Shown here: in pieces, positions 24,263 through 45,975 of the stretch
How positions within the stretch are numbered: the first letter of the stretch is position 1
How the letters are laid out: each line of letters begins with the position of its first letter
Origin: a virus
Lineage: Duplodnaviria; Caudoviricetes
Virus record (IMG/VR): IMGVR_UViG_3300033485_000021
Location: 1 to 49,081 of that record
Reading direction: 5' to 3' (one strand)
DNA: 49,081 nucleotides
Notes under the pieces: model-generated
Told to the model about the DNA's origin: nothing
The model's database searches: none
What the model saw: only the letters and a program-made list of their open reading frames with translations
Position numbers and translations under genes: made by a program

Positions 24263-24450
24263 TGGCCGCACGCAGGACACAGGTGACCGCGACCTTCTTC
24301 GACGCCGAGGGCTACCCGCTGGTGGCCTTCCGCGGCAACGCCCAGGACGTCGGAGACGCCGCCGCCATCTATATCTGCAACCTCGCCCAGCCGCTCGGCG
24401 GCAGCCCGCTCATCCGTCTCATGGAGACGAGGGAAGAGGAGGAGTCGTGA
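24262..24450 (+). CDS. hypothetical protein (62 aa)
   Basis: Coupled start and stop with both neighbours. Confidence 0.6.
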   Translation: MAARRTQVTATFFDAEGYPLVAFRGNAQDVGDAAAIYICNLAQPLGGSPLIRLMETREEEES

Positions 24451-25063: not shown

Positions 25064-25192
25064 ATGCCCTACCGCTCGGCCAAGCAGCGCGCCTACATGC
25101 ACATCAACCTGCCCGCCATCGCCAAGCGGTGGGACAAGAAGTACGGCGGCAAGGTGCGGCCCAAGAAACGGTGGAAGAGCAAGAGGACTTGA
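25064..25192 (+). CDS. small basic phage protein (42 aa)
   Basis: MPYRSAKQRAYMHINLPAIAKRWDKKYGG, a pattern seen in small phage proteins. Confidence 0.6.
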   Translation: MPYRSAKQRAYMHINLPAIAKRWDKKYGGKVRPKKRWKSKRT

Positions 25193-25315
25193 CGGAGGAA
25201 TCCCCTCTCTGACCTAGAATAGGGACGCGCAGTCTACCCTCACTGCGTAGGCCACGGGGCCGCTCGCTGCATGACAGCCCCGTGGCCGTCTCTGTAAACG
25301 GGAGAGAGGAACCGT

Positions 25316-25978
25316 GTGAGAGATGGGAGACAGGCTCTACTCATAGTCGTCACCGCCGCGGTCATCGTCATGGCCGCCCTGCTGGCGACACCCGACCTCG
25401 CTGCCAACGAGACGGTAGTCACTCCGACGCCAGACCCTTCCCCGGTCGTCCAGACCAAAGCCAAGCGTTTCGATCGCTCCCCGGCCCCGGCATCCCTCGT
25501 GGCCTGGGCACGCGCCTGGAAGCGCCACGCCGTGCGCGACCTCGCCAGCCTGAACCGCGCCCGCGCCTGCTTCTCGCTGCCGCGGCTCAGCGTCTCCTGG
25601 GAGGAACCGCCGCGCAGCGCGTGGCGGGCGCCGTGGGGACAGGCCGGCGAACGCTGGCGCGACCGCGCGCGGGACTACCACGACCGCTTCGCCGCCCTGC
25701 GCTGGCGCATGAGCCACCCCGGCCCCGGCGGCGTCGAACGCTGGCGCCCGCTGGTGCGCTGGCACTGGCCGGCTCACCTCGTGGAGCGCGCCCTCTGGGT
25801 GATGAGGCTCGAGAGCGGCGGCAACCCGCTGGCCCGCAACCCATCGGGCGCCGCCGGCCTCTTCCAGTTGTACCCCGCGCCAGCGGGCTGGGCTAATCCT
25901 GATACAAATATCTGGTACGCCTACTGGAAGAAGTACCGCCCCGCCGGATCCTTCTCGCCGTGGGTGGTCACGCACTGA
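25316..25978 (+). CDS. exported lytic transglycosylase (SLT / lysozyme-like fold)
   Basis: N-terminal hydrophobic signal or anchor. VMRLESGGNP.A.N.SGAAGLFQ catalytic motif. Confidence 0.8.
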   Translation: MRDGRQALLIVVTAAVIVMAALLATPDLAANETVVTPTPDPSPVVQTKAKRFDRSPAPASLVAWARAWKRHAVRDLASLNRARACFSLPRLSVSWEEPPRSAWRAPWGQAGERWRDRARDYHDRFAALRWRMSHPGPGGVERWRPLVRWHWPAHLVERALWVMRLESGGNPLARNPSGAAGLFQLYPAPAGWANPDTNIWYAYWKKYRPAGSFSPWVVTH

Positions 25979-25996
25979 TGGAGGGAGGTGAGACAC

Positions 25997-26338
25997 ATGA
26001 AGCTCACCGAAGTCATCACGCTACTCGCCACCGTGCTCGTCGCCGGCTGGTTCTCCGCATTCATCGTCCAGTTCATCAAGCAAGCGAAATGGGCGAGTTG
26101 GGTGAAGTTGGTCATCAGCGCCGTCATCGCCATCGTGGTCGCGATCGCCACGCTCTGGCTCAGCGGCGACGTCACCAGCTTCCTCGACACCTACAGCAAC
26201 GGGACGCTCGATGTCGAGCACATCATCGCCTTCGCCACGCTGATCTTCACCAGCGCCGCGACGTGGTATCGCTTCTACTTCAAGGACGCGACCTGGGCGC
26301 AGAACCTCGGCAACTGGCCGGGGGGATCGTCTGAGTGA
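25997..26338 (+). CDS. holin-like membrane protein
   Basis: GGAGGTGA SD, three hydrophobic segments, last gene of the lysis module. Confidence 0.7.
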   Translation: MKLTEVITLLATVLVAGWFSAFIVQFIKQAKWASWVKLVISAVIAIVVAIATLWLSGDVTSFLDTYSNGTLDVEHIIAFATLIFTSAATWYRFYFKDATWAQNLGNWPGGSSE

Positions 26339-26371
26339 CACAGGGTGTTGACACGGGGGTATACTGTCCTC

Positions 26372-26445
26372 GGTGATGGTTACCCCCTTCACCTTCAGCC
26401 GGCCTGACGAGTTTGGTTGTCCCCTTTCGCGTCAGGCCGGCCCCC
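26372..26445 (+). ncRNA. candidate small RNA: two hairpins with C-rich anti-SD loops
   Basis: Stems GGTGA/TCACC and the 12-bp GCCGGCCTGACG/CGTCAGGCCGGC. The large loop contains TGTCCCCTTTCG. TATACT -10 lies at 26360-26365. Confidence 0.5.
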
Positions 26446-26458
26446 TTTAAAGTTTCCC

Positions 26459-26488
26459 TTGCGTTCCGTCCGCAGCAAGGATTACGCT
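26459..26488 (+). promoter_or_regulatory. sigma70-type promoter for the rightward recombination/methylation block
   Basis: TTGCGT-N18-TACGCT. Confidence 0.5.
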
Positions 26489-26538
26489 CTCTCCTGACGA
26501 AGCACTACGTGTCCATTCACCTTGAGGGAGCGTGAATC

Positions 26539-26709
26539 ATGCAGCGCAAGAGAGCCCCCTACTGGCTCGCCGCGACCGTGCTCATCGCCTGTATCGCCGC
26601 CTTCTTCTACCTCGCCTGCCTGATCGCCAGCAACGCCACGGCGCTGGTCGCCGTCGCGCTCTTCGTGCTGGCGATGGTGGTGCTCTACGCCTCCGAGCTT
26701 CGGGCATGA
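26539..26709 (+). CDS. small two-TM membrane protein (56 aa)
   Basis: GAGGGAG SD. MQRKRAPYWLAATVLIACIAAFFYL...; ATGA overlap with the next gene. Confidence 0.65.
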   Translation: MQRKRAPYWLAATVLIACIAAFFYLACLIASNATALVAVALFVLAMVVLYASELRA

Positions 26710-26966: not shown

Positions 26967-27913
26967 GCCGTGAGAGCGCCGTCGAGAAAGCCCACCGCGA
27001 GTTCGGCGGCATCACCGCCTCGATGAGCGCCACCGTATGTGGTGTGAACCCGTGGGACTCGCCCTACGCGCTCTACCAGCGCCTCATCGGTGAGGCGCCG
27101 CCGCTCGAGCAGAACTTCGCCATGTGGCTGGGGGGCCAGATGGAGGGCATCATCATCCGCGCCTTCACGCGCGAGACGAAGCTCAGGGTGCGGCGCCCGA
27201 AGCGCGCCTTCGATCCCGACTTCTGGTTCGAGACGCACGAGTGGGGCTTCCCGATGGGCTGCCTGCTCGACGGCATCACCGTCGATAGCTCGGGGCAGGC
27301 GATCGTGGAGGCCAAGCACGCCTCCTCCTTCGCCGGCGACGACTGGGAAGGCGAGCCGCCGCTGATGTACTGGTTCCAGATGCAGCATCAGCTTGCCTGC
27401 ACCGGCTGGCTCGCCGCCTACGCCGTCGCCCTGGTCGGCAAGAAGTTGGTCTGGCTGCGCGTCGAGCGCGACGACGAGATCATCGCCATGATCACCGACG
27501 CCGAGCGCGAGTTCTACATCGAGCACCTCAAGCCGCGGGTGCCGCCGGCCATCGACGGCCACACCGCGACGAGCGAGGCGATCAAGCGCCAGTACGCCCA
27601 TGCCGAGCCGGGGTTCAGCGTCATCATCGAGGACGCCGAGGCCGAGCGCCTCTGCGCCAAGTACGGCGCCGAAGGGCGGGCCATCGAGGCACTGAAGACC
27701 GAGCGCGAGCAGACGAAGAACCTCCTGCTCGCCATCGTCTCGAGCGCCGAGAGCGCCGTCATCGGGGAGTACAAGGTGACCGCCAAGGAGCAGCACCGCA
27801 GCCATCTCGACGTCGAGCGCCTGTGCGCCGAGATGCCCGAGGTGGCAGAGAAGTACCGCAAGGTGACCAGCAGTCGCCCGCTTCGGGTGACGCAGAGGAA
27901 AGGGGACGTGTGA
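26963..27913 (+). CDS. YqaJ-like viral recombination exonuclease
   Basis: GITAS...GVNPWDSPYALY, LLDG, IVEAK and YWFQMQHQL motifs. Confidence 0.9.
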   Translation: MSRESAVEKAHREFGGITASMSATVCGVNPWDSPYALYQRLIGEAPPLEQNFAMWLGGQMEGIIIRAFTRETKLRVRRPKRAFDPDFWFETHEWGFPMGCLLDGITVDSSGQAIVEAKHASSFAGDDWEGEPPLMYWFQMQHQLACTGWLAAYAVALVGKKLVWLRVERDDEIIAMITDAEREFYIEHLKPRVPPAIDGHTATSEAIKRQYAHAEPGFSVIIEDAEAERLCAKYGAEGRAIEALKTEREQTKNLLLAIVSSAESAVIGEYKVTAKEQHRSHLDVERLCAEMPEVAEKYRKVTSSRPLRVTQRKGDV

Positions 27914-31842: not shown

Positions 31843-32184
31843 ATGAGTTGGTGGGGCGACGCTGCCGGGGCGCCGACGCTCGGCCACTCCGAGAAGGAAC
31901 TGGTCGCGGAGTGCAAGAAGATCGCCGCGGCGATGAACGCCTACCTTGAGGTCGCCGGCCAACTGAAGGCGCGCGGCTCGGGCAGCACGGTTGGGCTACC
32001 GGACGGCTTCCTTTACTGTTCGGGGAAGTGCCTGCCCATCGAGTTCAAGACCGAGAAGGGCCGCCTCTCTGCCGCTCAGGCCGGCGCCCAGCACCGCCGC
32101 ATGGAACAGGGCGTCCACACCTGGATCATCCGCAAGCCCGAGGAGTTCATCGACCTCGTCAACCTGTGCAGGAGGACGGCGTGA
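31843..32184 (+). CDS. VRR-NUC domain nuclease
   Basis: GLPD...IEFKTEKGRLSAAQ motif. Confidence 0.82.
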   Translation: MSWWGDAAGAPTLGHSEKELVAECKKIAAAMNAYLEVAGQLKARGSGSTVGLPDGFLYCSGKCLPIEFKTEKGRLSAAQAGAQHRRMEQGVHTWIIRKPEEFIDLVNLCRRTA

Positions 32185-33968
32185 AGTACCTCTCGCTGTT
32201 CAGCGGCATCGAGGCCGCCTCGCTGGCCTTCGATCCGCTGGGCTGGGAGCCGCTGGCCTTCGCTGAGATGGAACCCTTCCCCAGTGCCGTGCTCGCAGCG
32301 CGCTGGCCCGATGTCCCCAACCTGGGTGACGTCACCGCCGTGGACTGGGAGGCGTGGCTCGCAGAGCACGGCCGCCCCGATGTCGTCATCGCAGGATCAC
32401 CCTGCCAAGCATTCTCCGTCGCCGGCAACAGGAGGTCGCTAGCTGATGCCCGAGGAAACCTCACCCTGTTTACAGCAGAGCTTGTTCGACTGCTCCAGCC
32501 CCGATTCTTCATCTGGGAGAACGTACCGGGAAGTCTCAGCACCAGGGACAACGCCTTCGGCTGCCTGCTGGGAGAGCTTGTGGGCGCTGGCGAGCCTCTC
32601 GTCCCATCAGGGAAGCGATGGACGAACTCGGGTCTTGTGTCTGGACTCGAAGCGCGCGCCTGCTGGCGTATCCTCGATGCCCAGTATTTCGGAGTGGCCC
32701 AGAGACGCCGCCGTCTGTTCCTTGTCCTCTGTCCTCGAGACGGGGCCGATCCCGCGGCGGTACTACTTGAGTGCGAAAGCCTGTTCGGGGATTCTGCGCC
32801 GCGCCGCGAAGCGCGGACGCGCCCTGCCGGCGGCCCTCCAGCAGGCGCTCGAGGCGGCGATCTGCTCGCAGACAGCGGAGTCGTCAGAGGACTGAAGGCA
32901 CGCTTCGGCACCAGCGGCTCCGACCTCGATGACGCGGAGGGCGGTCACCGTGTCCCCGACGGCCCCTGGTGGGACGGCTCCGACGTCTCTGAGTGCCTCG
33001 ACTCCTCCAAGCTGCTCAAGCAGCAGACGATGCCTGAGAAGGGCCGGTTCGCGGCAGTGGTGGAGCCGATGGCAATCCCCATCCAAGAGCCGAACTGTGG
33101 CACTGGGCCGTCTGGCTTTGATGACCAGCGCAAGGGACTCGGTGTGGGCGACGAAGACGATCCGATGTACGCCCTTCAGGCGGGTCATCAGCACGCCGTC
33201 GCCTTCCGAGAGGCGAACTCCGAGAACAGTTGTGGCACCGCCGTCTCTGAGGACGGCTCCTGTCCGACGCTGCTCAACGCCGCCGGCAATGTGGTGCCGG
33301 CCGTCGCCTTCAAGCCCAGCCACTACACGCGCGGCAAGGACGGCGCCCCGCAGGAGACGAGTCCCCCGCTCGTCGCCCACATGGGCCGCGGACTGGGTGA
33401 CCAGGATCCGCACGTCCTCGCCAGTGGCTTCCACGTCAAGGGCGGCGGCGGCAACGACAAGCGGTGCAGCATGGTCGAGGACGGCAGCCCTGCGGTGGTG
33501 GAGCCGCAGCCCATCGGCTTCCAAGCCAAGCGAGGGCAGAACTCTGACCTCTGCGCCACGCAGGATGGGTCGCCGCCACTCAGCGTGGAGGGTTCAGTCG
33601 CCGCAGTCGTCCATCCCGGCGCCGGCGGTCGCGCCGACGAGCGCATGGTGCTGGCACGGGAAACGGCACCTACGCTCTCCGGTGGGCATGGGGGCGGTGC
33701 TGGACATCAGTATCGCCAGAAGGGGAACGAAGACGCACTGGTCGCATCTCCCGACCCAGCGATGGCCGTGCGCCGCCTCACGCCGCGGGAGTGCGAGCGC
33801 CTCCAGGGCATGGAAGACGATCACACAAAAATCCCGTGGCGCGGCAAGCCGGCAGAGGAGTGTCCAGACGGGCCGCGCTACAAAGCCATAGGGAATTCAA
33901 TGGCGGTTCCGGTGATCCGCTGGATCGGGCGGCGGGTGGAATACGCCGCCGCTCTTCATCAGGACTGA
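32181..33968 (+). CDS. DNA (cytosine-5) methyltransferase, large chain
   Basis: SLFSGI, GSPCQAFSVAG, WENVPG, QRRRRLF, RRLTPRECERLQG and YKAIGNSMAVPV motifs. Confidence 0.93.
   Translation: MKYLSLFSGIEAASLAFDPLGWEPLAFAEMEPFPSAVLAARWPDVPNLGDVTAVDWEAWLAEHGRPDVVIAGSPCQAFSVAGNRRSLADARGNLTLFTAELVRLLQPRFFIWENVPGSLSTRDNAFGCLLGELVGAGEPLVPSGKRWTNSGLVSGLEARACWRILDAQYFGVAQRRRRLFLVLCPRDGADPAAVLLECESLFGDSAPRREARTRPAGGPPAGARGGDLLADSGVVRGLKARFGTSGSDLDDAEGGHRVPDGPWWDGSDVSECLDSSKLLKQQTMPEKGRFAAVVEPMAIPIQEPNCGTGPSGFDDQRKGLGVGDEDDPMYALQAGHQHAVAFREANSENSCGTAVSEDGSCPTLLNAAGNVVPAVAFKPSHYTRGKDGAPQETSPPLVAHMGRGLGDQDPHVLASGFHVKGGGGNDKRCSMVEDGSPAVVEPQPIGFQAKRGQNSDLCATQDGSPPLSVEGSVAAVVHPGAGGRADERMVLARETAPTLSGGHGGGAGHQYRQKGNEDALVASPDPAMAVRRLTPRECERLQGMEDDHTKIPWRGKPAEECPDGPRYKAIGNSMAVPVIRWIGRRVEYAAALHQD
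32677..32895 (+). CDS. nested alternative-frame ORF, putative methyltransferase beta polypeptide
   Basis: CSLSSVLETGPIPRRYYLSAKACSGILRRAAKRGRALP resembles the M.EcoHK31I-type beta chain. The start is uncertain because the frame is open from 32446. Confidence 0.65.
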   Translation: MPSISEWPRDAAVCSLSSVLETGPIPRRYYLSAKACSGILRRAAKRGRALPAALQQALEAAICSQTAESSED

Positions 33969-34564: not shown

Positions 34565-35785
34565 CTACCGTGTGACGCGGAAGACGCGGCCCTTCGTGAC
34601 GAGGGGCTTGTCTGCCGGCCCTTTGACATAGGCATGGATGAACTTCGGCTTGTGGCGTCCCTCTGAGGGATACCACTGGTTGCGCCAGAATGGGTTGACG
34701 ATCCAGCGATGCGACCAATCCCGGCCCACACACTCGTCGTCAACGTGCTCTGCCTGACGTGGCCGCCGCAGCGTGACGACCAGGACATCGGAAGGCTCCC
34801 TGCCGGCGCGTTGCACTCTCCTCGCGGTCGGCCGGCTCATCTTCTCGTGGCGCGTCCAGGTGAGCGGCTCGTTGATGAGCAGCACGTAGGCCCAGAAGAG
34901 GCGAAAGTACTCGCTCGCTTCGCCCAGCCTCATCCCGAATCGCCACGGCTCTTGGAGCGCAGCGAACAGGCTGTTGTTACCAGCGGTTGTCGGCGTGAGT
35001 ACGATGCGTGTCTCCTTGGCGGCGCAGAACCAGAGGTTCGCGGCGATGCTCTCTCCGGCGAAGACCACGAAGGCGCGGCTGGGCATCACCCCGAGATCAT
35101 GGAACGCGGGCACATAATCGTCGGGAAGCGTCCGCTCCATCGCCTTGACGAGTCCGGCGAGTTCGTCCGACACCCACATCAGTGATGCCGCCCAGAGTTC
35201 CTCTGATGCAAAGAGGTCACGGTCAGTCGCTGCCCAGCGCAGCTTCTCCTCCACGGCCTCGCTCACGCTGTTGACGCTCGTCCGGCCAGCGAGGGCGTAC
35301 TCTGGGGCTTCGTTGTCTTGATGCTGCTCAAGCCGCTCCCTTTGTCGGTTCTCGATGCCCGCTAGGAACTCCTCACGGCTTGTTCCTGGCCGCGGGAAGT
35401 GAAAGCTGGTGGCCTCTAGGGCAGCGTCCATGCCCACTCCAACTGACAGCCGCACCGCCGCCTCCCAGCGAGAACGCACCTCTTCCGCGAGGTCGATGCG
35501 TATGGGCCAGAGCGGGGATTCGGAGAGAGGGAACGCGGCCATGTAGTAGAGCGCATCGCCGTCCTCCTCAAGGGCTATGATCTGGGCGAGTCTACCGAAC
35601 TGAAGTTGCCGGTTACTGGCACCGATACGCAGGCGCCACGCCTTTGCTGGCTCAGGCCCAGCCCAAACGATGCCAAGAGGATCTTCGGTAATCTTCGAGG
35701 AGAGATGGCGCAGGCTCTCCTTGAGTTCCCGCAGATACTCCTTGTCGGTCTTCTCGATCCAGCGGCCCGATGTCCACCCAGTCAT
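34565..35785 (-). CDS. hypothetical protein (406 aa) with atypical codon usage
   Basis: Long ORF with SD. C-terminal VVTLRR..WSHRWIV..FWRNQWYP..YVKGP motif. Confidence 0.75.
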   Translation of the reverse strand: MTGWTSGRWIEKTDKEYLRELKESLRHLSSKITEDPLGIVWAGPEPAKAWRLRIGASNRQLQFGRLAQIIALEEDGDALYYMAAFPLSESPLWPIRIDLAEEVRSRWEAAVRLSVGVGMDAALEATSFHFPRPGTSREEFLAGIENRQRERLEQHQDNEAPEYALAGRTSVNSVSEAVEEKLRWAATDRDLFASEELWAASLMWVSDELAGLVKAMERTLPDDYVPAFHDLGVMPSRAFVVFAGESIAANLWFCAAKETRIVLTPTTAGNNSLFAALQEPWRFGMRLGEASEYFRLFWAYVLLINEPLTWTRHEKMSRPTARRVQRAGREPSDVLVVTLRRPRQAEHVDDECVGRDWSHRWIVNPFWRNQWYPSEGRHKPKFIHAYVKGPADKPLVTKGRVFRVTR

Positions 35786-36768
35786 GTGGCCTCCCTCTTC
35801 GCCGTCACCATCTCGACGGCCTCGATGATCTCCTCGCAGAGTTGCTCGGGCAGGCGGCTGCGATCCACCGTCTTATGTCCTTGCGTGGAGCCGGGAGTAC
35901 GCGAGCCCCGCGGCGCCGCGACGTGGCAGGGGTCACCGTTGCTGCACATCGGCCGTGCCGCCCAGGCGAAGTTGCTCCAGATATCGGTCGGCTTGCGGCG
36001 CGTGTCGCCGTAGGCGCAATAGGTGATGCTGGTGCGGTACGGCGCCCGCTCCACGACGGGCAGCTTGCGGAGCTTGCCCATCGGGTTCTCGATCGCCCAG
36101 AGCAGGTTGGGGTTGCGCTTCTCCCAGTAGTCGATGAAGGCGAAGGTCGCCTCGACGATCCGCACGCCGAGCTTGGCCTCTTCGGTCTTCGGCGTGTGCG
36201 GGATGGGGTACTCGGGCGTCGGCTTGTCGGGCGACCAGTGCTTGCCGATCGACGCCACGCTGAAGAAGGTGCAGGGCGGTGAGGCCCAGATGAAGTCGGG
36301 TGCCCACGGCGCGACCGCCGGATCAAGCTCGAGGATGTCGCCCACGGCGTCCATGTTCTCGAACTCGTAGAGGTCGGTGCTCCAGACCGCCCAGCCGCGG
36401 CGCTCCGCTACCTTGCCGATGGAGCGCGTGCCGGCGAAGAGTTCGAGCATCCGCAGTGGACGGCTGGCACCCTCGAAGACGCCGTCCCCGAAGTCGGTGC
36501 CGCAGGCAGGGCAGACCATCTCGCCGTCGCTGTCCTCGCGCATGGCGTGGCCGCACTGCTCGCAGGCCGGCACCGCCGTGCCCTCGACGGGCAGCCAGAT
36601 CCTGTCCTCTGAGTCGCGCACCGGACGGCCCAGGCAACCCATCAGCGTGTCGCAGGGGTGGTCGCAGGGCACATCCTCGTAAGCGTCGTCGCACCGCTCG
36701 CAGGTAGGCTGCCCGTCCTTGTCGAGGAACATCTCCTGGCCGCAGTCGCGGCAGTAAAGCTTGCTCAT
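35782..36768 (-). CDS. Zn-ribbon N-terminus fused to a short C5 DNA methyltransferase-like domain
   Basis: LELFAG, IWASPPC.FFS, IENP and YC.YG..RRKPTDIW motifs. N-terminal CxxC pairs. Confidence 0.8.
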   Translation of the reverse strand: MSKLYCRDCGQEMFLDKDGQPTCERCDDAYEDVPCDHPCDTLMGCLGRPVRDSEDRIWLPVEGTAVPACEQCGHAMREDSDGEMVCPACGTDFGDGVFEGASRPLRMLELFAGTRSIGKVAERRGWAVWSTDLYEFENMDAVGDILELDPAVAPWAPDFIWASPPCTFFSVASIGKHWSPDKPTPEYPIPHTPKTEEAKLGVRIVEATFAFIDYWEKRNPNLLWAIENPMGKLRKLPVVERAPYRTSITYCAYGDTRRKPTDIWSNFAWAARPMCSNGDPCHVAAPRGSRTPGSTQGHKTVDRSRLPEQLCEEIIEAVEMVTAKREAT

Positions 36769-36779
36769 TCAGTCCCCTT

Positions 36780-37853
36780 TCATCGGGCACGCGGGTGCGC
36801 GCTCAGGTAGGTGGCCTTGAGATGGGCCTCGCTGACGTGCGTGTAGATCTCGGTCGTGGTCACGCGGGCGTGGCCGAGGAACTCTTGGATGCTCCGCAAG
36901 TCGGCGCCGCCCTCGAGCAGATGCGTCGCGCAGGCGTGCCGCAGCATATGTGGGTGGCAGGCGACGCCGGCGCGGCTGGCGATGCGGCCGACGATGCGGC
37001 GCACGTCGCTGGTCGCCAGCGGGTTGCCGTTGACGGTGGTGAGGATCGTCTCGCTCGGCGTCGCCGGCCGCACCTCAAGCCACGCATCGATGGCGTCCAG
37101 GGTGCGCTCCGAGAATGGCACCATCCTGGTCTTCTCGCCCTTGCCGTGGACGATGAGCATGCCGTCGTCGCGGCGCACATCCTGCACTTTCAGAGTGCAG
37201 GCTTCGGCACTGCGGAGCCCGCAGCCGTAGAGAAGTTCGAGCAGGGCGAGGTCGCGCTTTCCGCGGGCGAACTCGGGGCCGATCTCGAGGCCAGATTTCT
37301 GCTCAGGATTCGCCTCGGAAATCGTCCCGGCAATCGCCACCGAAGCGGCGCGGCTGGCGACCGCCGTGCAACGCACGCCGGCCTCGGCCTCGGCCTGGGC
37401 GAGAATGCGCTCGGCCTCGCCGGCAGAGACGACGCGCGGCAGGCGCTTGGGCCGCGCCGGCACCTTGATCTTGTCGGCGACCTCGGCGTCCACCACGCCG
37501 GCCTCCGCGAGGAAGCCGATGAAGGCGCGCAGGGCGGTCGCCTTGCGCTGCACGGTGGCCGCCGAGGCGCCGTTGATGGAGAGGTCAGCCACATAGCGGC
37601 GGCAACGATCGCGGTCGAGGTGCGCCGCCGTGAGGTCGTCTCGGTCGAGCCAGCGCAGAAGCTGGACGATGTCGCCGCGGTAGGCGCGCAGCGTGTGCGG
37701 GCTGACCTTGCGCTGCTCGAGGCTGGCGAGGAAGGGCGCCGCCTGGGCCTCGACGGCGGCCTCGTGCTGCCGCCTGCGCTGCGAGTCCTGCCGCGCGCCG
37801 CGCGCGCGCGCGCGATTTTTCAGGGAAATGGCGCCGCTGCTCGGAAGGCTCAA
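36780..37853 (-). CDS. tyrosine recombinase, XerC/XerD-like
   Basis: RD.ALLELLYGCGLR, GKG.K.R.VP, HPHMLRH..ATHLLEGGADLRSIQEFLGH..TTEIYTHV and HPRA end. TTG start after GAAAGGGGAC. Confidence 0.92.
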   Translation of the reverse strand: MSLPSSGAISLKNRARARGARQDSQRRRQHEAAVEAQAAPFLASLEQRKVSPHTLRAYRGDIVQLLRWLDRDDLTAAHLDRDRCRRYVADLSINGASAATVQRKATALRAFIGFLAEAGVVDAEVADKIKVPARPKRLPRVVSAGEAERILAQAEAEAGVRCTAVASRAASVAIAGTISEANPEQKSGLEIGPEFARGKRDLALLELLYGCGLRSAEACTLKVQDVRRDDGMLIVHGKGEKTRMVPFSERTLDAIDAWLEVRPATPSETILTTVNGNPLATSDVRRIVGRIASRAGVACHPHMLRHACATHLLEGGADLRSIQEFLGHARVTTTEIYTHVSEAHLKATYLSAHPRAR

Positions 37854-37885
37854 GGTGTCCCCTTTCTCGGTGGCCTTGTGTGCCA

Positions 37886-39055: not shown

Positions 39056-39092
39056 GATGTGTCCCCTTTCGATTCGCTGTTCTCAGCCCAAA

Positions 39093-39138: not shown

Positions 39139-39705
39139 TCAGCCCAAATCGACCATCGGCTCAAGGTCGCGGGCGATACGATCCTCAAGGTCATGCCGCA
39201 TGCCGCGAACGTCGGCGGCGGCGGCATCGATGGCCGCCTTCAACGCCGTCATCGTCGCGGTCGAGCAGCGGGCTGAGATGCGGAGCGCGTCCCAGGCGGC
39301 GTCGAGGTCGAGGATGGCGCAGCGGGCGTCGGCATCCTCGTTGATCGGGACTTGCCACTCAGGGAACTGCTTGACGTTCTTTGCGGCGACGAGCCGCACG
39401 GCGTCCTTCGGCGTGACTGCCGGCGCGGCCTCGACCTCGTCGCCGACGTCGGCGAGGTCGAGGTTGGCGTCGAGGACGGTCGAGATGTGGCCAAGGGCCG
39501 CGGCCTGCGGCGCGTCCCACTGCACGTCGATGAGTTGGGATCCGTTGCCGACGTTCATGTTGGGGTTGACGGCGAGGACGGTTCCCCTGGCGTCGCGATG
39601 AGTGGCGACGTCGGCAGGGTTCGCGCCGGGATGACCGATGAAGGTCATAAACGCATGGTTGAAGGCGACTCTGTCGCCGACCTTGAAGGTGAAGTCCGTC
39701 ATCAC
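39139..39705 (-). CDS. hypothetical protein with an SH3-like N-terminus
   Basis: FKVGDRVAF..GTVLAV..DVQWD. GAAAGGGGAC SD. Confidence 0.7.
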   Translation of the reverse strand: MMTDFTFKVGDRVAFNHAFMTFIGHPGANPADVATHRDARGTVLAVNPNMNVGNGSQLIDVQWDAPQAAALGHISTVLDANLDLADVGDEVEAAPAVTPKDAVRLVAAKNVKQFPEWQVPINEDADARCAILDLDAAWDALRISARCSTATMTALKAAIDAAAADVRGMRHDLEDRIARDLEPMVDLG

Positions 39706-39935
39706 TTGTCCCCTTTCAGAATGCTGTTGAGCCTGACCGAATCGAAAGGCCGCGCCGTGAAGACGTTGCCGGTATCGGTCGACCTGACCCAGAGGACTTC
39801 GCCGTCGCGCTTCGCCCGTGCGGCGAAGTCCTCTGCGGCGGCGAGCGTCACGAAGCGCCTGCGACTGACGAGCGTGAAACGATTCTTGATCCTGCGCTCA
39901 GGATGCAGGCGGCAGACTTGCCACTCCGTCCTCAT
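39702..39935 (-). CDS. hypothetical protein (77 aa)
   Basis: GAAAGGGGAC SD, directly downstream of a promoter. Confidence 0.7.
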   Translation of the reverse strand: MRTEWQVCRLHPERRIKNRFTLVSRRRFVTLAAAEDFAARAKRDGEVLWVRSTDTGNVFTARPFDSVRLNSILKGDK

Positions 39936-39966
39936 TGTGTCCCCTTTCGTCGCTGCCGTTGTGCAG

Positions 39967-40424: not shown

Positions 40425-40634
40425 GGTCGCCTCCTCTTCGCTGCCGTCACCTAGTAGAAGGTTCCTTCGGGCTGATCATGTCAGACGGCGATCCGGCGAC
40501 GGCCTCGAGCGCCTGCGAAAGCCTCTCGCCAGCTTTCACGCGCGCGCGTAGAAATTTCAGGGATTTGCGCGGGATGCTCGGAAGGATGCCGGCGCTTCGT
40601 CCGTCCTGCCCTGGCCGGCTGAACGGTCGTTCAA

Positions 40635-40654
40635 TCCCCTACCGCGGTAGGGGA
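40635..40654. repeat. perfect 20-bp palindrome
   Basis: TCCCCTACCGCGGTAGGGGA. Confidence 0.85.
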
Positions 40655-40682
40655 AGGACCGTGACTATACGGCCTGCACAAT

Positions 40683-41060
40683 TTAACTACCCGTTTAACT
40701 AAATCCGGCAGGCGATCCGCTGCCGTCCGTCCGTCCGTCGCGAGGATCCTCGCCGGCACTCCTGCCGTCCGTCGTCCGCTGCCGTCGTCCGTCCAGCGCC
40801 GCCGCTGCCGTCCGTCGTCCGTCCAGGCAAAGCGCCATTGCTGCGGCGCTGCCGTCGTCCGTCCGTCGTCCGTCCGTCGTCCGTCCGTCGTCCGTCGTCC
40901 CCTAGCTTTCGGATCCATGCCGCCATTGCCTGCCGTCCCCTGCCGTCGTCCGTTAACTACCGCAGGGGACGATAGCCGTCCCCTGCCGTGCCGTCCCCTG
41001 TAGCCGTCCCCTGCCGTCCGTCCCCTTAACTACCGCTGCCGTCTGGACGACGGCAGCGGG
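40683..41060. repeat. non-coding low-complexity array (CCGT/CGT, GCCGTCCCCT, TTAACTACC units)
   Basis: Directly visible tandem repeats. Confidence 0.85.
41033..41059 (-). terminator. hairpin downstream of the GP88-like gene
   Basis: CCGCTGCCGTC-N5-GACGGCAGCGG. Confidence 0.55.
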
Positions 41061-41080
41061 TAGTGAGTCTGTCGCGCGGT

Positions 41081-41698
41081 CTAGTGGAGTCGCGCGTATA
41101 TCGTCCGTCCCCTAGGGTTCAGGCAGAGACGGCAGCGGCGACAATCGCCCGGACAGACGGTCGCGCCCGCAGGGATATCGGACGGCAGCGCCGCGACGAA
41201 CAGGTTGCCGATACCCGCGACGCCAGCGAAATGCTCGCCGCTGCCGTTGACAGTGATTCTTCCGGGCGCTGCCGTCCAGTCTAGGAGGTCGTTCGCGGTG
41301 TACGTGAACGCCTGCACGCCGATAGCCTGCAGGCGTTCGCCGATATCGGCGAGCTTGTCTACGTCGCTTTGCGTGGCGACGTCTCCTGCCTCATTGAATC
41401 GGAAGGCCGGGAACGGATGCCGCGCGCGTGAGCGGATCGCTTCGACAACGTCGGCAAACTGCGCCGCCGTGAGCAGGCTCCAGAGTTCTGCCTGCCGGCG
41501 ACGATATGGCAGGCAGGCAGGGTACATCCGTTCGAATTTGCGAGCGTAGCAAGCATTGCGGGGAACCCTGCACAACCCTGCCGCCAAGGATGGACAGTCC
41601 GTTGCCGAGCAGAGGTTGAAGATAGGGTACGGAACCTTGGAGTTACCGCGCGATATGTGGGCGGCAAGGGTTCGCGTTGTGTCGGCAGGATCAATCAT
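41081..41698 (-). CDS. GP88-like Cys-rich protein
   Basis: GNSK...FNL....CP......C......CYA, FRFNEAGD and CPGDCRRCRLC motifs. Confidence 0.7.
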   Translation of the reverse strand: MIDPADTTRTLAAHISRGNSKVPYPIFNLCSATDCPSLAAGLCRVPRNACYARKFERMYPACLPYRRRQAELWSLLTAAQFADVVEAIRSRARHPFPAFRFNEAGDVATQSDVDKLADIGERLQAIGVQAFTYTANDLLDWTAAPGRITVNGSGEHFAGVAGIGNLFVAALPSDIPAGATVCPGDCRRCRLCLNPRGRTIYARLH

Positions 41699-42138: not shown

Positions 42139-42178
42139 TGTCGTCCCCTTTCGATTTAGATCTAAAGTAGTTGCGTCG

Positions 42179-42406: not shown

Positions 42407-42443
42407 TGCGTCCCCTTTCGGTGGTTCTCTCGCGTACGCGACA

Positions 42444-42472
42444 AGAGTACAGAATGATTCCCTGTTCGTCAA
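42444..42472 (-). promoter_or_regulatory. leftward sigma70-type promoter
   Basis: TTGACG-N17-TACTCT. Confidence 0.6.
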
Positions 42473-42943
42473 CAGTATCGGCATACCCTTCCCGTAGCTT
42501 GAATGAATCAGGGGACGGGTGAAGGGCAGGTGACTGTGATAGCAATGGGCCGCAAAGCGTACGGCAGCTGCACGGCAACGGCAGCGGATCGCCTGCCGTG
42601 CCGTCGTCCAGCGCCTGCCGTTGACTGTTGATACAGGGACGACGGATCATCGATACAGCGCGAGCCTACAGGGGACGACGGCAGCGGCCCTCGTGAGCCT
42701 AGCTTGTCATAACGTCACACTATCGCGCGCGCCAGCCGCGGCACCCCTGGCCACCCCCATGCCCACGGTCGCGATCCTACGGCAGCAGCGCACTACGGCC
42801 TCTTACGCGCAGACCCCGCTCACAATCTCAGGACTCCAAAGCACCCCCAGGACGGATCCTCTAGACCCTGAACCCATACAGACCCCCACCCCCCTACCCC
42901 CCTCCCCCGACTCAGAAGGTCTTGACTTGCCGGCGTAGAATGT

Positions 42944-44041: not shown

Positions 44042-44174
44042 ACTCTACGCCCTGCTCGACCTCCTCGCCAAGCTCGAGGCCGAGGTCGCGACCGACACCC
44101 CGGCCCACCTCTCGGTGCTCGTCCTGCGGATCGTGGCCGAGCGCAAGTTGACCGAGCGCAAGGAGTTCGGGTGA
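44028..44174 (+). CDS. small hypothetical protein (48 aa)
   Basis: MTSRELYALLDLLAKLEAEV...; good GC3; GTGA overlap with the next gene. Confidence 0.5.
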   Translation: MTSRELYALLDLLAKLEAEVATDTPAHLSVLVLRIVAERKLTERKEFG

Positions 44175-44623
44175 GGCTCCAGGTGCAACCCATCACGCGA
44201 ACCGAAGCGCAAGCATTCGTCAGCCGGCACCACCGCCATCACAACCCCGCGGTCGGGGACAAGTTCTGCATCGGCCTCAACGACGGCCAGGAGGTCGTCG
44301 GCGTCATCGTCGTCGGCCGGCCAATCGCCCGCCACCTCGATGATGGCTACACCGCCGAGGTCACGCGCTGCTGCGTCCTCGAGGGCATCCCCAACGGCTG
44401 CTCCAAGCTCTACGCAGCTGCGTGGCGGGCGGCACGGGCGATGGGCTACACGCGGATGGTCACCTACACCCTCGCCTCCGAACGTGGGACGAGCCTCACC
44501 GCCGCCGGCTGGAGGGAGATGTACAAGACCCAGAAGCGCAACACGGGCTGGTCTTGCGCTTCGCGTCCTCGCGTGGACACGCACCCGCTGGGCCAGAAGA
44601 CGCTCTGGGAGGTCAGGGCGTGA
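44171..44623 (+). CDS. XF1762-family / Mom-like GNAT-fold protein
   Basis: FV.RHHRH, VGRP.AR.LDDG.T.EVTR, CSKLY.AAWRAA.AMGY and TYTL.SE.G.SL.AAGW motifs. Confidence 0.78.
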   Translation: MRLQVQPITRTEAQAFVSRHHRHHNPAVGDKFCIGLNDGQEVVGVIVVGRPIARHLDDGYTAEVTRCCVLEGIPNGCSKLYAAAWRAARAMGYTRMVTYTLASERGTSLTAAGWREMYKTQKRNTGWSCASRPRVDTHPLGQKTLWEVRA

Positions 44624-45975
44624 CCAAGTCGCGCGGCATCGGCAGGGGCGGCCCGCGGACGGTGACGCCGCCGACGCGGCGCGACGTCAAGATCCGGCTC
44701 TACACGCCCCATCCCGGCCAGATGCGCCTGCACTCCTCGACGGCGCGCTTCCGGCTCGCCGTCTGCGGCCGGCGCTGGGGCAAGACCTACGCCGCCGCCA
44801 ACGAGATCGCCAAGTTCTGCTGGGAGAACCCCGAGTGGCACGGCCTCGACGGTCGGCAGGCGGCGGTGCCGACGATGACGTGGTGGATCGCCCCGACCTA
44901 CGGGCAGAGCGTCAAGGCGTTCACCGTCATCACCCAGATGTTCGCCGGCGCCATAGCCTCGAAGAAGTCGGCCGTGGGACAGATGAAGGTGGTCTGGAAG
45001 AACGGCGCCGTGACCGAGTTCCAGTCGGCCGAACGCTACGACAACCTGCGCGGTGAGGGCGTGCGCTTCATGGTCATCGATGAGGCGGCGATGGTGAGCA
45101 AGTCGGCCTGGACGGAGGTGCTGCGCCCGATGCTCACCGACACGATGGGCCGCGCCCTGATCATCAGTACGCCCAAGGGGCGCAACTGGTTCTACGAACT
45201 CTACCAGCGCGGCATCGATCCCGAGCAGACCGACTACGAGAGCTTCTCATTTCCGACGTCTTCGAGCCCCTACATCGAGAACTCAGAGGTCGAAGAGGCA
45301 CGCCTCACCCTGCCAGAGGACACCTTCGCCCAGGAGTACCTCGGCGCCTTCCTCGATGAGGCTGCCGGCGTCTTCCACGGCATAGACGACTGCATCTACG
45401 GGGAACTCGAGGAGCCACTCGCCGATCACAAGTACGTCATCGGCTGGGACATCGCCAAGAAGGCTGACTTCTCGGTGGTGACCGTCATCGACACAGACCA
45501 CTACCGTGACACGGTGCCGGTTCCCCACGTCGCCTCCTTCGACCGCTTCAACACGCTGTCCTACACCGTGCAGGCCGACCGCGTGCAGGAGATCGCCCGC
45601 AAGTACCACACCTACGTCCTGCTCGACTCTACAGGACTGGGCGATCCGGTCTACGACATGCTCTGCGCCCGCGGCGTGCCCTGCTACCCCTACGTCTTCA
45701 CCAGCCGCTCGAAGGAGATGCTGGTGCAGAACCTGGCGATCGACATCCAGAGCAAGAGCATCTCCTATCCCGACATCCCTAACCTTCTACATGAGCTTCA
45801 CAGTTACCAGTACACCCTCGGGCCGACCGGGAGACTGAGCTACTCGGCGCCCGAGGGCGACCACGACGACTGCGTGGTCAGCCTCGCCCTGGCCGACTGG
45901 GCGGCGCGTCATCCAGCGTGGCTCGCGGAGCCGACGCTGTTCTACGAGGACGACGAGATCATCAGCCCTATCTGA
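44620..45975 (+). CDS. terL: terminase large subunit
   Basis: GRRWGKT Walker A, VIDEAA Walker B, ISTPKG, IGWDIA and HDDCVVSLALA nuclease motifs. Confidence 0.95.
   Translation: MTKSRGIGRGGPRTVTPPTRRDVKIRLYTPHPGQMRLHSSTARFRLAVCGRRWGKTYAAANEIAKFCWENPEWHGLDGRQAAVPTMTWWIAPTYGQSVKAFTVITQMFAGAIASKKSAVGQMKVVWKNGAVTEFQSAERYDNLRGEGVRFMVIDEAAMVSKSAWTEVLRPMLTDTMGRALIISTPKGRNWFYELYQRGIDPEQTDYESFSFPTSSSPYIENSEVEEARLTLPEDTFAQEYLGAFLDEAAGVFHGIDDCIYGELEEPLADHKYVIGWDIAKKADFSVVTVIDTDHYRDTVPVPHVASFDRFNTLSYTVQADRVQEIARKYHTYVLLDSTGLGDPVYDMLCARGVPCYPYVFTSRSKEMLVQNLAIDIQSKSISYPDIPNLLHELHSYQYTLGPTGRLSYSAPEGDHDDCVVSLALADWAARHPAWLAEPTLFYEDDEIISPI

Follow-up and report, generated by a model that had tools for sequence, protein, structure and literature searches.

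A candidate antisense RNA in a tailed phage, with a loop complementary to the ribosome-binding sites of eight early genes

Introduction

Between the lysis genes and the early operon of a tailed phage lies a hairpin whose loop is the exact complement of a short sequence found directly before the start codons of eight phage genes. What could such a loop be for? A preliminary description of this DNA proposed a trans-acting RNA that pairs with the Shine-Dalgarno sequences of all eight genes. Here we weigh that proposal against the possibilities that the hairpin is only a terminator or that the shared sequence is bound by a protein, and ask at what stage of the phage life cycle an RNA of this kind might act.

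The phage and its genome

The window, meaning the whole stretch of DNA analysed, is a complete virus record of 49,081 bases with 66% G+C. Head and tail genes at 4.5–24 kb identify a tailed phage, and a lysis cassette (amidase at 24447, SLT at 25316, probable holin at 25997) precedes a rightward early operon encoding RecE (26963) and Bet (27913). The leftward arm contains a methyltransferase, an XerC-like recombinase, an excisionase/BldC-like gene, genes of unknown function and GP88; the terminase is at 44620. A replication initiator (46133) is found between the terminase and a probable portal gene, and two DNA methyltransferase genes and a Mom-like gene occupy 32028–33968, 35782–36768 and 44171–44623. 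A lead to the host comes from the terminase (44620–45975): its homologue P0181 (62% identity) takes its name from a Thermoleophilia genome, which hints at an actinobacterial host. A genome scan yielded distant proteobacterial RecE genes only, and thus no prophage copy, att site or host; Atlas searches with two proteins gave leads under 0.9 only.

The RNA-B element

The element, here called RNA-B, lies on the plus strand at 26360–26455. It begins with a −10 box, TATACT (GGTATACT, 26360–26365), followed by a small hairpin (26372–26393) with the loop TGGTTACCCCCT, which contains the C-rich ACCCCCTT, and by a second hairpin (26398–26441) in which a perfect 12-bp stem (26398–26409 with 26430–26441) carries a 20-nt loop, AGTTTGGTTGTCCCCTTTCG, at 26410–26429. 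These three features had been noticed previously and are all confirmed. Within the large loop stands a reversed copy, GTCCCCTTTC (26419–26428), of the motif GAAAGGGGAC described below, and a weak terminator tail, CCCCTTTAAAGTTT (26442–26455), adds a third CCCCTT. RNA-B thus consists of two hairpins with C-rich loops, containing CCCCC and CCCC. The region 26366/26372–26452 folds with z = −5.9 to −6.7, and most of the large loop is predicted to be unpaired, apart from a 2-bp GG/CC pairing within it. An energy ranking over gene starts gave no specific target for the loop of the first hairpin.

TTGACA (26348) is just 6 nt from TATACT, so that the −10 box has no −35 element at canonical spacing, and a promoter scan called no sigma-70 promoter in 25–28 kb. 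Directly downstream, at 26459–26488 on the plus strand, is the predicted rightward early promoter (TTGCGT, 18 nt, TACGCT), whose spacer contains the sequence TCYGTCC (26465–26472), conserved by eye in 10 relatives and a candidate operator. RNA-B was not called in a search for intrinsic terminators (GC stem, 3–8-nt loop, U tract), having a 20-nt loop and a tail of three T followed by AAAG; terminators in actinobacteria can lack a U tract. The RNA-family search proposed in the preliminary description was run against Rfam and matched no family: the whole window gave no gathering match, and 25150–26560 at E≤10 gave three chance matches only. Three runs from the same study contained only three partial pieces of 34 nt, all in one run and none on RNA-B, which carries no weight either way.

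The motif and its eight gene starts

The motif GAAAGGGGAC has nine matches in the window, compared with a mean of 0.08 in shuffled sequence and none of 100 shuffles reaching nine. Eight of the nine stand 2–5 nt before the ATG, GTG or TTG of early genes, and the reversed copy in the RNA-B loop is the only one away from a start codon; structural genes have no sense copy. One copy is on the plus strand, at 27898–27907, before bet (Bet/RecT annealing protein, start 27910 or 27913). The remaining seven are on the minus strand: at 36772–36781, overlapping the recombinase stop, before a DNA methyltransferase-like gene (start 36768); at 37857–37866 before the XerC-like tyrosine recombinase (TTG 37853); and before five genes of unknown function, namely at 39061–39070 (141 aa, GTG 39055), 39708–39717 (187 aa, 39702/39705, with an orthologue in the relative G017), 39939–39948 (77 aa, ATG 39935), 42143–42152 (147 aa, ATG 42138, preceding the GP88-family gene) and 42410–42419 (75 aa, GTG 42406, behind a TTGACG-17-TACTCT promoter). 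The exact complementarity to eight gene starts that had been claimed for the loop therefore stands, as do its extensions to 12 nt at 39060, 39706 and 39938. Two gene assignments need adjusting: the methyltransferase (35782–36768), previously called short, has 328 aa, and the recombinase is XerC-like with a family match under the curated cut-off.

When the RNA-B loop is used as a query, the eight motif sites take ranks 1–8 among 65 curated gene starts, two or three of which may be spurious ORFs. Pairing energies average −23.5 kcal/mol for the targets and −12.7 kcal/mol for the others, the weakest target (−20.3) lying just beyond the best non-target (−19.4). None of 2000 loop shuffles reaches eight starts at 10 nt, and one does so at 9 nt. 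RNA-B also heads a survey of 708 hairpin-strand entries from 220 sequences (4.1 Mb, window included), with 8/8 compared with 4/6 for the runner-up, the controls being mostly partial loci of 10–21 kb that offer fewer targets. The target sites are predicted to be 36–83% open, and late genes with GGAGG-type sites pair poorly with the loop.

The motif could also be read as a protein-binding site, either for an RNA-binding translational regulator or as a stoperator-like DNA site, the loop copy then being a minus-strand decoy or a further operator. Consistent with this, the minus strand of RNA-B carries three AAGGGG motifs, and seven AGGGGAC cores are clustered at 40.5–41.15 kb. The spacing of 2–5 nt to the start codon suits a Shine-Dalgarno sequence rather than a DNA operator, and the conserved −10 box is on the plus strand, with no conserved box seen on the minus strand. 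The decoy, raised as an alternative in the preliminary description, is disfavoured by the strand of that box, and a protein site of either kind appears improbable.

The AGGGGAC cores lie on the minus strand, each a 7-nt complement of the RNA-B loop, in one of two non-coding stretches rich in repeats (40500–41150 and 42450–42750). This cluster might serve as a sponge or an origin, or take part in packaging. Comparable repeat regions with different cores occur in the relatives G003 and G017.

RNA-B and the motif in relatives

Relatives were collected as syntenic contigs by Bet alignment, by tail-protein alignment (seven further viral contigs besides the same phage), and with a pattern built on the early promoter at 26459–26488 (three new family members and the same phage). 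RNA-B is present in three sequences only, the window, L105 and L104, two of which share an assembly prefix. Throughout these three, GGTATACT, ACCCCCTTCACC of the first hairpin and the full 20-nt loop are invariant, and 5 of the 12 pairs of the long stem have changed on both sides with none broken. A fourth relative, L103, in which the RNA-B region is absent, has the motif before five genes, with 14 nt of complementarity at the integrase. Sense copies number eight in the window, five in L103, two in L104 and one in L105, and all 16 retain the final AC of the motif, two bases that presumably do not pair with 16S rRNA.

The window, L103, L104 and L105 form a single RecE clade (support 99/98), to which motif and loop are confined. 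The exact motif is absent from G003, G017, G018 and G019; loop and motif are both missing from the other family members, and ten more distant relatives have, at the RNA-B position, a plain pair of terminator-like hairpins with short, C/U-rich loops. Motif and loop are thus present or absent jointly, indicating that they travel together. The motif/loop switch is, as read from the tree, one evolutionary event.

Other searches for the element returned little. The single exact copy among viral contigs (L005/G001) comes from the same phage (100% identity) and was excluded from the counts; five other contigs with the loop pattern have the motif once each; blastn against phage records gave five short chance matches only, and a final pattern scan returned, apart from the same phage, two unrelated matches attributable to chance. 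The more distant G002 and G004 have no convincing system, the G002 loop matching two starts at 8 nt in its own genome and likewise two in the window. Loops of L111, L113, L120, L121 and L107 show no preference for their own genomes, and the own-genome loop matches of L112 (3/27 starts at 8 nt) and L119 (1/4) are suggestive.

The hairpin pairs of the distant relatives, situated at the same place, fit the idea that RNA-B is a terminator of the late/lysis operon and nothing else, that GAAAGGGGAC is a strong ribosome-binding site which has spread by copying through the early region, and that an inverted duplication left the loop match behind as a relic. In addition, of 17 unrelated viral matches to the 15-nt loop pattern, about 11 are ordinary gene starts on the other strand. 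A terminator would need neither an invariant 20-nt loop on a changing stem nor a conserved −10 box of its own, and a mere ribosome-binding site would hardly keep in 16 of 16 copies a final AC that is not expected to pair with 16S rRNA. The sister element described next shares the design of RNA-B, and its position does not coincide with the end of an operon in every relative. On balance, a terminator alone is an unlikely explanation.

A sister element

A second element, RNA-A, absent from the preliminary description, lies upstream at 25215–25290 on the plus strand and follows the same design of −10 box (TAGAAT), small hairpin (loop TCTACCCTCA, 25233–25242) and long hairpin (11-bp stem, 25250–25287, loop CGCTCGCTGCATGACA). 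It is kept in 12 family members, with two copies in L113; 42 other loci searched with a model of it yielded no additional copy, and Rfam gave no match. Among ten aligned copies, 10 of the 16 pairs have changed on both sides and CTGCATG in loop 2 is invariant. The G-U pairs of the stems fall on the plus strand, which counts against the protein-site reading.

Sequences complementary to the RNA-A loops, TGAGGG and CATGCAG, stand at the beginning of the first gene of the rightward early operon (TTGAGGG...TCATGCAGCG, 26522–26547, plus strand). This gene (26539–26709) encodes a hydrophobic product of 56 aa with no confident protein match. The two contacts would be separate, with no one continuous helix possible. 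In all 13 copies loop 2 has a match of 7 nt or more to its own leader, and that leader is the best or tied-best partner in only 5 of 13. For loop 1, L104 provides a compensatory change (CCCTCGA with TCGAGGG), giving 7 nt with its own leader and 4–5 nt with 11 others; the match fails in L121 and in one L113 copy. The sequence matched by loop 2 includes the start codon and coding bases, which counts against a protein-binding site.

Putative target sites in G017 and G003

G017, whose left arm is covered, lacks both GAAAGGGGAC and the RNA-B loop. Its integrase, the gene after recE, the first early gene and the orthologue of window 39139–39705 carry instead TGAGGG..CATGCAGC, the complement of both G017 RNA-A loops. 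Three of these four sites are in one half of the sequence (L387), compared with 0.01 expected, and three further left-arm genes carry CCTTGAGGGAGG. Where the target is present, the G017 orthologues begin with MQ instead of MT or LS, a second point against a protein-binding site. Since these early genes carry the RNA-A target, the same gene set bears the address of the phage's own RNA. The apparent address swap, one evolutionary event, is the strongest argument for an antisense reading. On the minus strand of G017, at 33180–33200 and 32690–32715, a repeated hairpin (GGGCCGCTGCGAGCGGCC...GGCAGTAGAAG) lies upstream of two motif-bearing leftward genes.

G003, which is sister to the motif clade, has at the place of RNA-B a 13-bp stem with a different 21-nt loop. 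Eight starts, all in the early region, have at least 7 nt matching this loop, two of them with 10 nt. The match is modest, being reached by 70–103 of 2000 loop shuffles, and by energy the loop pairs equally well with the starts of the window and with its own, being generically anti-Shine-Dalgarno. Two hammerhead-like motifs (CTGACGAG...GAAAC) stand directly before leftward early starts on the minus strand of G003, at about 37690–37620 and 37290–37220 (L354, subtract 20000); neither has an Rfam gathering match.

Proposed mechanism and timing

The complementarity, the positions of the sites and the pattern of conservation are features of the sequences themselves. From them we propose, with a probability of about 65%, that RNA-B is a trans-acting antisense RNA of about 75–80 nt that silences translation of the eight early genes. 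It would be transcribed from the GGTATACT box or released from the 3′ end of the late/lysis transcript, for which the hairpin may double as a terminator. The open 20-nt loop would pair, with no chaperone, over 10–12 nt with the extended Shine-Dalgarno sequence GAAAGGGGAC and so occlude ribosomes on the eight early mRNAs; RNA-A and RNA-B together could cover both early arms, bet and the recombinase. The trans-acting anti-Shine-Dalgarno RNA of the preliminary description has thus gained stem covariation around an invariant loop and −10 box, ranks 1–8 of 65, and joint presence of motif and loop, while its transcript and its repression of the targets are still what we infer.

As for timing, we slightly favour a late shut-off of the early genes over immunity; the indications are weak and the two are not exclusive. 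RNA-B is situated within the lysis cassette and on the strand of the late genes; TTGAC at a spacing of 17 nt is found in the three leftward early promoters and is missing from the RNA boxes; and the analogous loop of phage Adephagia lies at the start of late transcription. The same antisense mechanism might, more doubtfully, maintain lysogeny and confer superinfection immunity, RNA-A and RNA-B replacing a CI protein. No CI/Cro-type family was detected among the 107 ORFs scanned (77 + 30), a set that excludes some small ORFs and from which remote repressors could escape, and no antirepressor family was found in the ORF family scan of the window. An excisionase/BldC-like gene precedes the recombinase, and the loop varies between lineages, as expected of an immunity determinant; c4 RNA, moreover, confers heteroimmunity through loop pairing near a ribosome-binding site (PMC12197685). 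Against this, the conserved sequence in the early-promoter spacer hints at a protein regulator, the genome scan found no att site or prophage copy, and Adephagia has a protein repressor and carries its loop in a late leader.

A still broader reading can be offered only tentatively, and we consider it more likely wrong than right: the early programme would be governed by an RNA-only repressor system, with the extended Shine-Dalgarno sequence acting as an exchangeable address for small two-hairpin RNAs. Whenever a lineage acquired a new RNA, in the present case through a terminator loop that came under a promoter, the same regulon (integrase, bet and left arm) would be given a new address. Such a scheme would also account for the reversed start-associated sequence of the K1 phages discussed below.

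Comparison with known systems

RNA-B is best regarded as a real and conserved RNA candidate, not described before, that has a partner RNA and for which comparison among relatives supports an antisense action. Most of the phage antisense RNAs known so far regulate a single operon; C4 RNA and the kindred CI RNA, the antisense RNA of phage P4, are processed from a precursor by RNase P and have an immunity phenotype. If the antisense reading is correct, a single RNA would silence a dispersed regulon through a shared ribosome-binding address and without a repressor protein, a new means of timing or shutting down phage gene expression that would also provide a compact orthogonal tool for Hfq-less actinobacteria. 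Searches of the open-licence literature, subscription papers being outside this scope, brought up no account of a phage RNA that is antisense to a Shine-Dalgarno sequence common to many phage genes.

The c4 antisense RNA of P1 and P7 is a phage small RNA with loop complementarity around the ribosome-binding site of a phage mRNA (PMC12197685). The loops of RNA-A and RNA-B are likewise complementary to ribosome-binding regions of phage mRNAs, RNA-A being the closer of the two, with two loops directed at the first small gene of an early operon. In contrast to c4 and CI, the elements described here are two simple hairpins behind a −10 box and match no Rfam covariance model, and RNA-B is complementary to a Shine-Dalgarno sequence common to eight scattered genes on the two strands, whereas c4 acts on one antirepressor operon. 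C-rich loops that block Shine-Dalgarno sequences are a feature of sRNAs such as RsaE. The 6C sRNA of Actinobacteria, whose C-rich loops are predicted to pair with several mRNAs independently of Hfq (PMC6486639), resembles RNA-B in having two hairpins with C-rich loops. Unlike RNA-B, 6C is a host RNA with host targets; its Rfam model is unmatched here, and the phage loop is a specific 10–12-nt complement of a phage motif that goes beyond C runs. RNA-B would work like the P1 c4 RNA and the 6C RNA and belongs to neither family.

As a precedent for the target motif, the start-associated sequence (SAS) comes closest, by analogy; it is an over-conserved asymmetric motif at the ribosome-binding sites of non-structural genes in cluster K mycobacteriophages (PMC3203893) and cluster EF Microbacterium phages (PMC7302621). 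Like the SAS, GAAAGGGGAC is asymmetric, occurs in one orientation, is conserved beyond the Shine-Dalgarno core, and precedes non-structural starts (by 2–5 nt, compared with 3–7 nt). It differs in length (10 nt rather than 13) and does not match the consensus GGGATAGGAGCCC (K) or GGGAAAGGACCCC (EF). In K1 phages one SAS copy is reversed and away from a start, and binding by RNA or by protein was left open (PMC3203893); the role of the SAS is still called unknown in papers from 2011, 2024 and 2025 (PMC3203893, PMC11373665, PMC12699233).

Adephagia and Anaya each have a long hairpin whose 10-nt apex loop turns out to be the reversed K1 copy. The Adephagia hairpin belongs to a conserved multi-hairpin leader (JF704105, 58570–58720; L381, L369) behind a TAGACT box at the start of late transcription, which has been placed between genes 92 and 93 (PMC11373665). 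Eleven cluster K phages were picked from the spread of 182 phage records matching the Adephagia region. The apex loop of the third hairpin is an exact SAS complement in four, is CTCCCTTCCC-like in four, and is different or lost in three. No reversed SAS copy was found in TM4, Pixie or AnnaSerena. The seven phages without the exact loop have 11–19 SAS copies, with 14–15 in five whose loop is changed or lost, so such motifs can persist without a matching loop, a point that favours a protein site, binding by either RNA or protein having been proposed for the SAS (PMC3203893). An anti-SAS loop as the explanation of all cluster K SAS is rejected, the exact loop being missing in 7 of the 11 phages examined. 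In cluster K the loop is uncoupled from the motif, whereas in the window phage motif and loop go together. RNA-B also provides a concrete, testable hypothesis for start-associated sequences.
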